Part shown: piece by piece, positions 5,489 to 55,228 of the stretch
Position numbering within the stretch: the first letter of the stretch is position 1
Layout: each line of letters opens with the position of its first letter
Source of the DNA: an uncultured delta proteobacterium
GTDB lineage: Bacteria > Myxococcota_A > Polyangia > Polyangiales > Polyangiaceae
Direction of reading: 5' to 3'
Assembly (NCBI GenBank): GCA_963696385.1
Contig: CAVOKF010000006.1
Span: forward strand, 384,001 to 448,000
DNA: 64,000 nt
The notes under the pieces: generated by a model
The model's input: the letters and a program-made list of their open reading frames with translations, nothing else
The model's database searches: none
What the model was told of the DNA's origin: nothing
Translations under genes and position numbers: made by a program

Positions 5489-5518
5489 GCAGTCCGTGCG
5501 CATTCGTGCAACCGCCAC
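5489..5518. promoter_or_regulatory. Candidate tandem enhancer (UAS) for a sigma54 activator
   Basis: GCAGTCCGTGC-N8-GCAACCGCCAC. Same architecture as sites at 7624, 10602, 51887, 53655 and 55147. Confidence 0.45.
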
Positions 5519-5640
5519 GCGGCGCGCGGTGTCCTGCTTCGGCTCGGAAGGCCGCGTAGCGGCGGAGAACGGGCCGCTCTCGCGCGGGGACGCGCGGGGA
5601 GCAGGGGGGAGGCGACGACCGTGAGAACGCGGCAAGGGAT

Positions 5641-5656
5641 TGGAACGGTCGTTGCT
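5641..5656 (+). promoter_or_regulatory. sigma54 promoter for the BON gene
   Basis: TGGAACGGTCGTTGCT (GG-N10-GC). Confidence 0.7.
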
Positions 5657-5696
5657 CAGACGGGGATTCACGACCACGTTTCGAAGGAGGATGCCC

Positions 5697-6371
5697 ATGG
5701 GCCCGAACAAGAAGACCGACGCGCAGATTCAGGGTGAAGTGATCGAAGAGCTCGGTTGGGATACGCGCGTAAAAGCGACCGACGTCGGCGTCGAGGTCAA
5801 CGCCGGGGTCGTCACGCTCACAGGGACGGTCGAGAGTTGGGCGGCGCGACTCGCCGCACAGGAAGCGGCTCATCGGGTCTGTAGCGTGCTCGACGTCGCG
5901 AACGACATCCGGGTCAAGGTCTTCGGCTCTTATGAGCGCAACGATACGGATATTGCGCAAGCCGTGCGCCACGCCCTGGAGTGGGACATTCTCGTGCCGC
6001 ACGAGCGAATCCAGACGACCGTGTCGAACGGCGTCGTGACGCTCGAAGGGAAAGTCGATTTCTGGAGCCAATACGATGACGCAGCGCGCTCCGTCCGAAA
6101 TCTTGCGGGCGTGCGCGAGGTGCGAAATCAAATCATGGTGGAGCCTTCCGCGCCGCGGGTGGCGCCTCAAACGGTGCGAATCGCGATTGAACAGGCGCTC
6201 GAGCGGCACGCCGCGCATGCCGCCAAGCACGTGCAGGTCGCCGTCGCCGACGGCAAGGTCGTTCTCACCGGAGACGTTCCATCGTGGGCCGAGCGCCATG
6301 CCGTCGAGGGCGCGGTCCGCGGGACGCCGGGAGTGCGCAGAGTCGACAACCAATTGCGCATTCAGCTGTAG
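5697..6371 (+). CDS. Triple BON-domain protein (OsmY-like)
   Basis: Three repeats of V.v.nGvVTL.G.V...V.N.i.v. RBS AGGAGG at 5685-5690. Confidence 0.92.
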   Translation: MGPNKKTDAQIQGEVIEELGWDTRVKATDVGVEVNAGVVTLTGTVESWAARLAAQEAAHRVCSVLDVANDIRVKVFGSYERNDTDIAQAVRHALEWDILVPHERIQTTVSNGVVTLEGKVDFWSQYDDAARSVRNLAGVREVRNQIMVEPSAPRVAPQTVRIAIEQALERHAAHAAKHVQVAVADGKVVLTGDVPSWAERHAVEGAVRGTPGVRRVDNQLRIQL

Positions 6372-6567
6372 TGGCCCGAGTCCAGGGATCGAACGGCTTG
6401 CGCGATGCTCGCGCGATGGACCGCGCGGCCAGTCATGGCCCCTCCGCTTCTCGAAGGCTTGCTAGGATGGCTCGGTCTCGTTGGCTCGCCTATCCTCGAG
6501 ATCCATGAAGGGAGCACTCGAAACTAAGTACGACCTCCTGGTACGGTACGTGCTGAGAGGTCCGCAC

Positions 6568-6924
6568 ATGGTGACGTCGAAGATTCGCGCATGGGCGCTT
6601 GTAGCGATCGGGGCCGGGCTCGTACCGATGGGCTCGGCTTGTTACGTCGAGCCGGCTCCGCCTCCCGCGGTTGCGGTGGCGCCTCCCGTGGTTGCGGAGG
6701 GCTACGACCCTCAATACTACGACGGTTACGTCGTCTACTACGACGCCGTGGGCAGGCCCTTTTACTACGTGGGCGGCGCCGTCGTGTGGGTACCCCCCAC
6801 GTCTCCGTTCTACATCGGCCTCACGGACCACTGGCGCGGCCACCGGGCGGAGTACGCTCGCTGGCACGAGCGCTATGGCGCTCGGTACCGAGGGTACCGA
6901 GACAATGGGCGCCGCCGGCGCTAA
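6568..6924 (+). CDS. Small Tyr/Arg-rich lipoprotein, hypothetical
   Basis: Signal peptide with GSAC lipobox, YYDGYVVYYD segment and basic C-terminus. Confidence 0.7.
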   Translation: MVTSKIRAWALVAIGAGLVPMGSACYVEPAPPPAVAVAPPVVAEGYDPQYYDGYVVYYDAVGRPFYYVGGAVVWVPPTSPFYIGLTDHWRGHRAEYARWHERYGARYRGYRDNGRRRR

Positions 6925-7051
6925 GGCGCCGCCGGCATCGGGCGCGAATCGACGGCTGCCGTCGACCCGACGCGTTCCGGTTCTTTGGGCTCATGCCCTG
7001 TGGCTAGTTGTCTCCCTTCACGGTTGTCGCGAACGACCCGCAGGTGCCCTC

Positions 7052-7531
7052 ATGACGCTGCAATTGACGTCGCCGAGCTTCGAGCACGAGACGGAGATTC
7101 CCACCGCGCACACGTGCGAAGGATCGGACGTATCTCCGTCGCTGGCCTGGGCCGGCGTCCCCCAGGGGACTCGGAGCCTCGCGCTCATCGTGGACGACCC
7201 CGACGCGCCGGATCCGCAAGCCCCGAAAACGACGTGGGTCCATTGGGTCGTCTACGACATTCCGCCGAGCGCCAAGGGCCTGCCGGAAGGTGCGACGGCC
7301 AAGCAGCTTCCGGCAGGGGCTCGCGAAGGAAGAAACGACTGGAAAACCGTGGGGTACCGCGGTCCATGTCCCCCGATCGGTCGTCATCGGTATTTTCACA
7401 AGCTTTATGCGTTGGACGTGGTCATGGCCGACTTGGGACAGCCCGACAAGGCTGCGCTCGAGAGCGCGATGCGCGGCCATGTTCTGGCTCAAGCCACGTT
7501 GATCGGCACGTACGCGAAGAAGCGCCGCTGA
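7052..7531 (+). CDS. YbhB/YbcL family (PEBP / Raf kinase inhibitor-like) protein
   Basis: DDPDAP, WVHWVVYDIP and GPCPPIGRHRYF. Confidence 0.93.
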   Translation: MTLQLTSPSFEHETEIPTAHTCEGSDVSPSLAWAGVPQGTRSLALIVDDPDAPDPQAPKTTWVHWVVYDIPPSAKGLPEGATAKQLPAGAREGRNDWKTVGYRGPCPPIGRHRYFHKLYALDVVMADLGQPDKAALESAMRGHVLAQATLIGTYAKKRR

Positions 7532-53555: not shown

Positions 53556-53654
53556 CGCGGCGCATCCGATGCGAGGCGGCCCAATCCGTGCTGGGTGCAC
53601 CCGCTATCGTGATAAAAGAGCGGCATTGCCGAGTCTCGGCGCGGGGGAGGCGGC

Positions 53655-53684
53655 GCGCGGATTGCGCGTTCACGTAAATCCTGC
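53655..53684. promoter_or_regulatory. Candidate tandem binding site upstream of the activator gene
   Basis: GCGCGGATTGC-N8-GTAAATCCTGC, 33 bp before the ATG at 53717. Confidence 0.5.
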
Positions 53685-53716
53685 ACGAAAACAAAACGAT
53701 ACGGAAAATAAGGAAC

Positions 53717-55105
53717 ATGGAGACGAAAACGCGCGTTCGCGTCCTCGTCGCAGACGACGAGGCCAGTGCCCGAAGCGGGCTATCGACTCTGCTCGCGGAC
53801 GAAGGTTTCGATGTGACCGTCGCGGAGGACGGGTTGCAGGCACTTGCCCGCGTGCAGGAAACGGCGCCGGAGGTACTCGTCACGGACCTGCGCATGCCCG
53901 GCCTCGACGGCATCGAGCTGCTTCGCCAGGCCCGCGAGGTCGTCCCCGATCTCATCGTCGTGCTCGTCACCGCCTTCGCGGACGTCGAGACGGCCGTTCG
54001 CGCCATGCAGGAGGGGGCGGAGCACTACCTGACCAAGCCGTTGCAAATCGAAGAGCTCGTGCTGGTCATCCGCCGCGCCATCGAGCGGCGCCACTTGCGC
54101 GACGAGGCGACCGAGCTCCGGACACGGCTGACCGAGCACCTTCGCTTCGACAACATCATCGGCTCGAGTCCGGCGATGCAGGAGGTCTTCGACATCATCG
54201 AGCAGGTCGCACCGAGCAAGGCCAGTGTCCTCATCGCGGGCGAGAGCGGGACGGGCAAGGAGCTCGTCGCGCAGGCCATCCACGAGAACAGCCCGCGCGC
54301 GCGCGCCCCCTTCGTCAAGCTCCACTGCGCGGCGCTCGCCGAGACGATTCTCGAGAGTGAGCTCTTCGGCCACGAGAAGGGCTCCTTCACGGGCGCGGCC
54401 GGGCGTCGCGAAGGCCGCTTCAAGCAGGCCGACGGCGGCACGCTGTTTCTCGACGAAATCGGCGAAATCTCACCCGCCGTCCAAGTCAAGCTTCTGCGAT
54501 TTTTGCAGGAGCGGACCTTCGAGCGCGTGGGCGGCAACGAAACGCTGAAAGTCGACGTGCGCGTCATCGCCGCCACCAACCGCGAGCTTCCGGCCGAAGT
54601 GGCAGCGGGCAAGTTTCGCGAGGACCTCTACTACCGCCTGAACGTCGTCAACATCGAGATGCCTCCGCTTCGGGCGCGCCCGAGCGATCTGCTTCCGCTG
54701 GCGACGCATTTTCTTCGGCGGTTCGCGGCGGAGAACGGCAAATCGATCGACGGCTTCGCCGATGACGCCGTCGAACGCATCGCCGCATACCGATGGCCCG
54801 GCAACGTTCGAGAATTGGAAAACGTCATCGAGCGCGCCGTCGTCTTGTGCGATGGTGTACGACTCACCGCCAAACACCTGCCCGCCGGCGTCGGCGCCGT
54901 GCCTCGCGGCAGCGTCCGCATCCCGGGCTCCACACTGGCCGAGGTCGAGCGACACCTGATCTTGACCACGCTCGAGGCGTGCGGCGGCAGGACCTCGCAG
55001 GCGGCGCAAATGCTGGATATCAGCGTGCGAAAAATTCAATACAAGCTGCACGAATACGGAATTACGATGCAGCGTACGACCGTGAGGCCACCCGAACCGC
55101 GGTGA
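53717..55105 (+). CDS. sigma54-dependent response regulator (NtrC/AtoC family: receiver-AAA+-Fis HTH)
   Basis: [40 protein letters not shown] and WPGNVREL. Confidence 0.97.
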
Positions 55106-55146
55106 CGCCCCGCCGAAGCGAATGGGGGATCGGCGCGCCCTGCCTC

Positions 55147-55176
55147 GCGAGATCTGCATGAGCACGCAAGATGTGC
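55147..55176. promoter_or_regulatory. Candidate tandem enhancer (UAS)
   Basis: GCGAGATCTGC-N8-GCAAGATGTGC. Confidence 0.55.
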
Positions 55177-55212
55177 CGCGATCGACTCGTTGTCCGCTGG
55201 ACTCCGCGCAAA

Positions 55213-55228
55213 TGGCCTGCGTCTTGCC
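55213..55228 (+). promoter_or_regulatory. sigma54 promoter for the CBS gene
   Basis: TGGCCTGCGTCTTGCC (GG-N10-GC). The ATG starts 15 nt after the -12 C. Confidence 0.65.

Follow-up and report, generated by a model that had tools for sequence, protein, structure and literature searches.

We asked which regulator reads, and which signal controls, a set of paired GCA-N5-TGC sites in the genome of an uncultured member of the Polyangiaceae (genome G000; 6.94 Mb, 96% complete). Six such pairs lie in a 64,000-nucleotide stretch, G000:C6:384001-448000, which we call the window and whose positions are numbered from its first letter. The window also encodes a protoglobin histidine kinase and, beside it, a sigma54-dependent activator, here named 53717 for its first nucleotide. 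A sequence-only reading had proposed that 53717, phosphorylated by the kinase, binds these sites and governs a gas-responsive sigma54 regulon. On balance, we favor a reading in which 53717 is an ortholog of NmpR, from the NmpRSTU system of Myxococcus xanthus, and drives a sigma54 low-oxygen regulon, with a neighboring kinase that is fused and inhibited by O2. The binding site and the type of regulon are already published; the spacing of the sites and the fusion of the kinase are what differs.

All six 30-mers were found at the coordinates first assigned to them, each with a 19-bp period, and the tandem sites are almost certainly real. Measured against the consensus first proposed, GC(A/G)-N5-TGC-N8-GCA-N5-TGC, three of the six are exact (7624, 10602 and 55147), one has a single mismatch (53655) and two have two (5489 and 51887). 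The A of the first triplet stands as consensus, but the alternative G does not: GCG is a tolerated variant, and the counterpart of the 7624 site in the relative G003 reads GCA. The sites, promoters and genes concerned are the following, with tandem sites given without strand.

5489..5518: tandem GCA-N5-TGC site, period 19, matrix score 18.5
5641..5656, plus strand: sigma54-like -24/-12 box, 123 bp from the 5489 site
5697..6371, plus strand: predicted target, triple-BON (OsmY-like) protein (Pfam PF04972; OsmY model below cut-off)
7624..7653: tandem site, near-identical pair in G003
7733..7748, plus strand: weak sigma54-like box (score 3.3), 80 bp from the 7624 site
7685..8878, plus strand: probable target, unannotated open reading frame (ORF) with no Pfam or NCBIfam match, likely start near 7763, lipoprotein-like N-terminus by eye
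8975..10522, minus strand: predicted leftward targets, pyridoxamine-oxidase-like gene (10085-10522) and phosphofructokinase (pfk; 8975-10072)
10550..10565, minus strand: sigma54-like box, 37 bp left of the 10602 site
10602..10631: perfect tandem site flanked by divergent promoters, similar pair in G003
10688..10703, plus strand: sigma54-like box, 57 bp right of the 10602 site
10718..13141, plus strand: predicted target, phosphoenolpyruvate synthase (ppsA; TIGR01418 above cut-off)
46805..51660, minus strand: predicted leftward target operon, universal stress protein (USP; 51175-51660), MacB-like permease, ABC ATPase, HlyD-type adaptor and outer-membrane efflux protein
51675..51690, minus strand: USP-operon sigma54 box, 197 bp away from the 51887 site
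51731..51746, plus strand: candidate kinase promoter, sigma54-like with GA replacing GC at -12, in the window and 5 of 10 genus relatives
51887..51916: tandem site immediately ahead of the kinase start; by eye, several relatives have similar pairs
51939..53555, plus strand: Protoglobin-PAS-HisKA-HATPase kinase
53577..53592, plus strand: conserved sigma54-like box, probable activator promoter, in the window and 6 of 10 relatives by eye
53655..53684: tandem site, probably within the activator leader; G007 has a perfect pair at the equivalent position
53717..55105, plus strand: REC-AAA+(sigma54)-HTH activator, NmpR clade
55147..55176: tandem site
55213..55228, plus strand: sigma54-like box, 37 bp from the 55147 site
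55242..55967, plus strand: predicted target, CBS-domain protein

Five sites had been placed about 40-200 bp upstream of GG-N10-GC promoters; the distances measured here are 123, 80, 57 and 37 (divergent), 197 and 37 bp. The sixth, at 53655, does lie before the activator gene as described, but it is downstream of the conserved box at 53577-53592 and therefore probably inside the activator's transcribed leader, not in an upstream enhancer. It probably serves autoregulation. A second GG-N10-GC, at 53651-53666, overlaps its first unit; an account of 53655 as a mere activator promoter is weakened by the period-19 pair kept in relatives and by RNA contigs that begin upstream of it. A further candidate pair at 53562 does not qualify as a full tandem site: the single GCA-N5-TGC unit at 53562-53572 lies just upstream of the 53577 box, and the would-be second unit is the -12 end of that box. 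The kinase is probably driven by the rightward GA-type box at 51731..51746, and the box of the USP operon was matched by eye in 5 genus relatives.

RNA contigs offer weak hints at the same promoters. Contigs from two studies end at 51638-51639, near the USP-operon promoter, and contigs from two studies begin at 53627-53628, both positions about 25 nt inside the predicted transcription starts; in one run, a contig begins at 51772, near the candidate kinase promoter. The predicted starts lie near 51664, 51757, 53603 and 55239. These contigs were assembled from runs chosen by this stretch, and their depth cannot rank genes. After the CBS gene, at window positions 56091 and 56164, contigs of three RNA runs are one base short, in a region with no called gene; assembly errors or strain differences may hide an ORF there.

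Shuffling the 7,308 bp of window intergenic DNA bore out the enrichment expected of true sites. We counted 3 exact matches, 6 with at most one mismatch on either strand and 8 with at most two, against shuffle means of 0.01, 0.07 and 1.61, and the observed count was reached in 0 of 200 shuffles at each threshold. This window test is circular, however, because the consensus was derived from the same six sites. A matrix built from the six sites and run over the genome with the window excluded gave 17 intergenic matches at period 19, 9 of them with a sigma54-like box 25-150 bp away, whereas 25 other periods gave 0-5 matches and 0-2 with a box (background, 5.5% of 3,186 random intergenic positions). 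Perfect intergenic GCA-N5-TGC pairs in G000 number 6 at period 19, the 10602 site among them, and 0-1 at each of 34 other periods; with the full 15-mer pair at no more than two mismatches, there are 5 at period 19 against a mean of 0.2. The single unit is not enriched in intergenic DNA, at 0.41 per kb both inside and outside genes. The enrichment is confined to the spaced pair.

Promoter linkage follows the same spacing. In G000, period-19 pairs precede 12 of the 280 genes that have a sigma54-like box and 10 of the 5229 that lack one, while the control periods 22, 25, 29 and 30 account for 2, 0, 0 and 1 of the 280. When G000 was pooled with related loci, 56 of 95 period-19 pairs had a box within 200 bp (related genomes contribute repeats), at distances that fall into groups of 34-37, 43-46, 54-57 and 76 bp, in approximately helical steps. 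Nine of these 56 promoter-linked sites lie 34-37 bp from their box; because this distance recurs, the 37-bp cases in the window are normal, and the earlier worry that a 38-bp separation is unusually close falls away. Genes were called with our own simple codon-model caller, which called some strands wrongly, and the sigma54 matrix is built on a general consensus with hand-set weights. Other periods served as spacing controls, and a reversed-pattern control went unused owing to its differing base order.

The activator belongs with NmpR. In a FastTree phylogeny, 53717 fell in a 35-row clade (support 98) with the activator of the Myxococcaceae four-gene locus, and the recognition helices of the two were compared. 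G000 has 43 sigma54-activator matches, and of the 12 parsed only C5:1366786 joins 53717 in the NmpR clade. A search for related loci by the activator returned mostly generic NtrC-family matches, from which L021 alone was retained. Of 19 further Myxococcaceae matches, 17 were included.

Across the genus, the motif is found with this activator. We counted YGCA-N5-TGCR pairs with at most one mismatch at periods 19, 22 and 29: the totals are 239, 62 and 56 for the 18 relatives that encode a 53717-type activator and 13, 13 and 9 for the five that do not (two of the five incomplete or fragmented). Period 19 exceeds period 22 in 16 of the 18; the relatives are kin, and counts across genomes are thus non-independent. 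Near-identical or similar pairs also recur at individual sites, as in G003 at 7624 and 10602, so the conservation sought in relatives is present, both locally and as the period-19 excess that accompanies a 53717-type activator. Judged by these sequence comparisons, 53717 very probably binds the sites. Three relatives carry two 53717-type activators each (L192 and L193 in G012; L137 and L194 in G021; L140 and L198 in G001), with period-19 pairs near both copies.

The predicted targets are those of an NmpR regulon. Outside the window, a site with a sigma54-like box at C7:633422 precedes CBS-USP-fixI (P-type ATPase), and a second, at C7:630142 inside the 3' end of fixI and also with a box, precedes ccoNOQP-ccoG (cbb3 oxidase); of 10 kinase loci in the genus, 5 have a site at the latter position. 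Further G000 targets include another CBS gene, a receiver protein, an HPF-cold-shock protein (CSD), kdp, a carotenoid desaturase and, by a weak site (score 12.7), HSP20 with a phosphate acyltransferase (PTA). The sites at CBS, HSP20-PTA and HPF-CSD are likewise accompanied by a sigma54-like box. In G007 and G174, sites precede homologs of FixI, CBS, USP and the activator. The cbb3 oxidase, P-type ATPase, USP, CBS and own-locus genes are shared with the M. xanthus regulon. Two matches were not counted as targets: that at nifB overlaps a promoter box, and that at nifH (C4:1064583) overlaps a TGT-N10-ACA, which we take to be a NifA-type site.

In M. xanthus, electrophoretic mobility shift assays (EMSA) and reporters show binding of NmpR to GCGCA-N5-TGCGC sites that occur in pairs, in most cases with 14-15 nt between them (PMC11841059). 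NmpR there activates a CBS gene, USP, a P-type ATPase with the cbb3 operon, and hemN-hemerythrin, and binds upstream of nmpU; a CBS gene heads the nmpR operon (PMC11841059). The window system resembles this one in its NmpR-clade REC-AAA54-HTH activator with NtrC-like output, in a GCA-N5-TGC core that is the core of the EMSA-proven site, in paired sites near sigma54 promoters and at its own locus, in its P-type ATPase plus cbb3, USP and CBS targets, and in its protoglobin sensor. By homology to this experimentally characterised system, the sites, activator and oxygen link proposed at the outset fit together; binding, activation and low-oxygen induction of the sites and regulon would carry over from M. 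xanthus.

The two systems differ in several respects. The window period is 19 (4 nt between 15-bp sites) and the M. xanthus period mostly 29-30 (14-15 nt), with exceptions there at pilR (5 nt) and nmpU (24 nt), and G000 does not share the preference for 29-30: of 280 sigma54-box genes there, 12 have a pair at period 19 and 0 and 1 at periods 29 and 30. The window locus has two genes where M. xanthus has four. There is no separate NmpU in G000, whose sole protoglobin carries an NmpS-type kinase; the hybrid REC-kinase NmpS and the double-receiver NmpT are not at the locus, and an unlinked NmpS-like kinase lies at C3:643335. Extra targets are predicted here (ppsA, pfk, BON, HSP20, HPF and efflux genes), and the hemN-hemerythrin target was not found. 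In the open literature searched, with most subscription papers outside its scope, there was no report of an NmpU-NmpS fusion or of 19-bp NmpR spacing; the S2 Fig legend of PMC6211767 does mention divergent domain architectures.

The shortened spacing is a property of the activator's clade. In 17 Myxococcaceae-family loci, 22 pairs have period 29-31 and 6 have period 19, and most other families of the order have period 29-30. Period 19 marks the clade of 53717, namely the genus together with G050 (10/1/1 pairs at 19/22/29), G145 (9/1/4), G174 (30/3/4) and G034 (17/7/4); G105 is weak (4/1/2) and G038 is an exception. At 10.5 bp per turn, 19 bp is 1.81 turns and 29-30 bp is 2.76-2.86 turns, so the shorter period keeps the same helical face with one turn less. 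It is not a consequence of kinase fusion: among fused loci, those of G038, G140 and G032 have period 29-30. The AAA-to-HTH linker measures 67 residues in 21 of 22 parsed period-19 activators and 68-73 in most others. That rule is broken by L141 (67, period 30) and L148 (70, period 19), and the rows are kin; linker length as the determinant of spacing is only a lead.

Next to the activator stands a kinase of composite origin. The closest solved relative of its globin is that of AfGcHK from Anaeromyxobacter sp. Fw109-5 (PDB 5OHE, E=2e-35), and Tyr42 and His95 of the window protein align with AfGcHK Tyr45 and His99; among 18 globin-PAS kinases, the proximal His is kept in 18 and the distal Tyr in 17. 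The globin, the single protoglobin of G000, was placed among NmpU globins (support 91). The nearest named homolog of the kinase is from a Polyangiaceae bacterium (70% identity). Neither the window locus nor any of 10 genus loci holds an NmpS or NmpT gene, the search for NmpT being confined to the loci, and no NmpU-type kinase domain was found in G000, where the best score was 161 bits against 315-330 for the training rows.

The kinase domain tells a different ancestry from the globin. In the kinase tree, 13 of 15 fused kinases, the window's included, group with 11 of 11 NmpS-position kinases (97/95), and 11 NmpU kinases form a separate group (100/99). Approximately unbiased (AU) tests reject NmpU ancestry or a grouping of all globin-kinases (p=4.5e-4 in the first tree, p=1.3e-6 in the final tree), as well as a single origin of all fusions (p=6e-5). 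The final tree drew on 8 of 18 globin-PAS kinases, 7 of 28 globin-kinases, 6 of 17 Myxococcaceae loci and 11 background kinases; the L163 REC-kinase, which grouped with background earlier and has a differing H-box, was left out, as were L188 and L190. Fused kinases have, after the globin, a linker resembling the one between REC and PAS in NmpS, and the two parts of the G140 fusion are each sister to a separate G135 protein, the globin to NmpU (96) and the kinase to NmpS (98/95). Because nmpU, nmpT and nmpS lie in that order on one strand, a single deletion suffices for fusion. Relay to fusion is the simpler direction, since the fused forms occur at scattered positions in the NmpS clade and differ in their junctions, although the tree is not formally rooted. 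These trees and alignments make it highly probable that the window kinase is a chimera of fusion origin, with an NmpU-family globin on an NmpS-type PAS-kinase. The family is frequent in metagenomes: among the 120 best matches listed, almost all are full-length globin kinases.

What would the fused kinase do? In M. xanthus, NmpU phosphorylates NmpT and the NmpS receiver, and NmpS alone phosphorylates NmpR (PMC6211767). Since the window's kinase domain is NmpS-type and NmpS phosphorylates NmpR, direct phosphorylation is plausible; in view of the homology we consider it likely that the window kinase phosphorylates 53717 directly. In the mechanism we propose, an in-frame deletion in an ancestral nmpU-nmpT-nmpS operon would have joined the NmpU globin to the NmpS linker-PAS-kinase. 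The deoxy-haem form would then be a net kinase that O2 binding switches off. A pair of activator dimers would occupy GCA-N5-TGC units spaced by 19 bp on the same helical face, and the regulon would comprise the cbb3 oxidase with its copper ATPase, USP, CBS, HSP20 and HPF proteins, ppsA/pfk and its own locus.

The sign of the oxygen response is the less certain part. AfGcHK is an NmpU homolog that phosphorylates an NmpT homolog; its Fe(II)-O2 form is active and its deoxy form inactive, with His99 and Tyr45 key (PMC8697598). The window protein keeps those His and Tyr positions. It differs in having a PAS insert and an NmpS-type kinase, without the NmpU-type kinase at 25-residue spacing, and in being predicted to target NmpR with the opposite O2 sign. 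If the regulon is still induced at low oxygen, loss of the NmpU-to-NmpS inverter means that O2 should inhibit the fused kinase, and by this analogy we lean toward an inverted sign, opposite to that of AfGcHK. Linker register can invert kinase output (PMC11164954). From globin to His, 26 of 26 NmpU proteins span 25 residues and direct fusions span 20, 26, 31, 34 or 50; no direct fusion keeps the NmpU heptad register, a point not directly applicable to PAS-containing fusions such as the window's. A probable working analogy, not membership, is with FixL/FixJ, in which a haem kinase shut off by O2 acts in a single step to induce cbb3 oxidase: FixL is active in its high-spin form and inactive as Fe(II)-O2 (PMC8697598), and FixLJ control of cbb3 oxidase is noted in PMC11841059. 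The window sensor, however, is a globin and not a haem-PAS, and its output is a sigma54 activator and not FixJ.

Several observations weigh against the reading of a fused kinase driving an NmpR regulon. It is the activator, and not the globin kinase, that the motif accompanies: a search with the window's sequence as query found no fused globin kinase in 8 of the 18 activator-bearing relatives, and period-19 sites are kept in such genomes (23 in G007, 23 in G017, 21 in G014 and 17 in G012). G007 and G019, 93% complete, have no PF11563 (protoglobin) match at all. Three activator-bearing genomes show little or no excess (G004 3/1/3, G016 4/5/2 and G018 7/7/5 at periods 19/22/29), and two fused kinases, of family f25, fall outside the NmpS clade. 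Among expected targets, hemN had no TIGR00538 match above cut-off in G000, 0 of 4 hemerythrin genes there have an upstream site, and the ppsA, pfk and kdp targets are not oxygen-specific. Orthology and Nmp roles were assigned through architecture and gene order in 18 Myxococcaceae-family loci, not through M. xanthus sequences. Finally, G000 encodes both a paralog whose recognition helix, SPRKIQYKL, is near-identical to that of 53717 (C5:1366786-1368180) and a free REC-PAS-kinase (C3:643335-644864) that scores 224 on the NmpS profile where the window kinase scores 193. Profile scores alone do not discriminate, because an unrelated G000 kinase scores 192.

The paralog could read the sites in place of 53717, or both activators could. 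It is 62.6% identical to 53717 overall and 68% in the HTH, but it occurs in 20 of 23 genus relatives (G010 removed) and therefore does not explain the motif distribution; the paralog-only genomes G006, G009 and G020 have 6, 1 and 2 period-19 matches against 3, 5 and 2 at period 22. The paralog gene itself has no nearby site, and 11 of 11 loci of 53717-type genes without a fused kinase carry 1-5 period-19 pairs, which makes a paralog reader quite improbable. Also unlikely, if less so, is that the free kinase at C3:643335 is the main activator of 53717 and the fused kinase an optional add-on, for example an O2-stimulated phosphatase. This would suit the persistence of the regulon in genomes without the fusion, in five of which the free type is the best match of the window kinase domain, and the type is near-universal (21 of 23 relatives), which itself speaks against our reading. 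Yet its H-box, NAAVLQL, suits the NARxAL-type paralog and not the SARSGL-type 53717, in line with a wider covariation of H-box NGAxLH with activator helix SAR(S/T)GL and of NAAxLQ with NARxAL. The free kinase is also present in G006 and G009, which have no 53717 type and no clear motif excess, and its locus has no period-19 site.

A further alternative keeps sites and activator and changes only the sign, the fused kinase being switched on by O2 as AfGcHK is. In a wetland facultative anaerobe, traces of O2 would then induce cbb3 scavenging and protect nitrogenase; the retained distal Tyr and proximal His, the Fe(II)-O2 activity of AfGcHK, the nif and hydrogenase-maturation genes of the genome and the presence of the window stretch in a wetland metatranscriptome are all in keeping with it. 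In M. xanthus, however, the shared cbb3, USP and CBS targets are the genes associated with NmpR activity, and hypoxia induces the CBS gene (PMC11841059). None of the direct fusions examined retains the NmpU linker register. We regard an O2-activated kinase as rather unlikely. That the motif is chance in GC-rich DNA, or overlap with sigma54 -12 TGC elements, is scarcely credible. The single unit is indeed not enriched, and some candidates are promoter overlaps (53562 and nifB) or, at nifH, overlap TGT-N10-ACA, but the sharp out-of-sample spacing specificity contradicts chance under the period controls, as do conservation in relatives and a published identical core. The reading we favor, an NmpR ortholog with a fused, O2-inhibited kinase, starts from computed observations of motif, spacing, promoter linkage, target genes, clade membership and chimeric kinase ancestry.

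Other features of the genome touch on these subjects. The C5:1366786 activator and C3:643335 kinase are each near-universal in the genus, have matching specificity residues, are unlinked and have no globin partner. A receiver-kinase ORF ends the cbb3 operon at G000:C7:623237-624604 (L001:13237-14604, minus strand), and its homologs near the activator in relatives without a globin kinase (L192, L199, L200 and L201) are candidates for a substitute input. In G007, which has no protoglobin match, 20 of the 23 period-19 matches are concentrated within 300 kb surrounding the activator (G007:C9:301637-600401). Among the strongest sites is G000:C6:317052 (L013; score 25.8), upstream of the kdp potassium-pump operon. 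Hydrogenase maturation genes (HypD, AIR-synthase-related) at G000:C6:366853-368987 (L014) adjoin a period-19 match, C6:369465, without a good sigma54 box. The nitrogenase cluster at G000:C4:1051045-1067000 (L010; nifH, component-1 genes, NifB-like radical SAM, nifZ and nifW) has sigma54 boxes and the TGT-N10-ACA upstream of nifH. In the window, a polysaccharide-use cluster at 14557-42888 (ROK regulator, FGGY kinase, GH95, GH3, GH44, GH30 and sugar ABC transporter) has no period-19 site in called intergenic DNA at up to two mismatches. Other Myxococcota carry globin-kinase and sigma54-activator pairs of other clades (L166, L171-L177, L179; L169, L170, L178, L183, L186, L187), with differing recognition helices; these are probably separate systems with other motifs.

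The regulon extends the published M. xanthus result to uncultured Polyangiaceae, and its regulon-wide shift from 29-30 to 19 bp makes the enhancer-spacing choice of a sigma54 activator testable. If the favored reading is true, an O2-inhibited counterpart of AfGcHK built from the same globin would show linker register setting the sign of a haem sensor, and the locus would be a clean case of a phosphorelay simplified by gene fusion, for which G135 (relay) and G140 (fused) form a near-sister pair for comparison. Across the Myxococcota, it is about an even call that the four-protein O2 NOT gate, in which NmpU shuts off NmpS, collapsed at least three times, via differing linkers between NmpU globin and NmpS kinase, into a natural family of O2-inhibited globin-coupled kinases, and that in one activator clade the enhancer pair was shortened by exactly one helical turn throughout the regulon.

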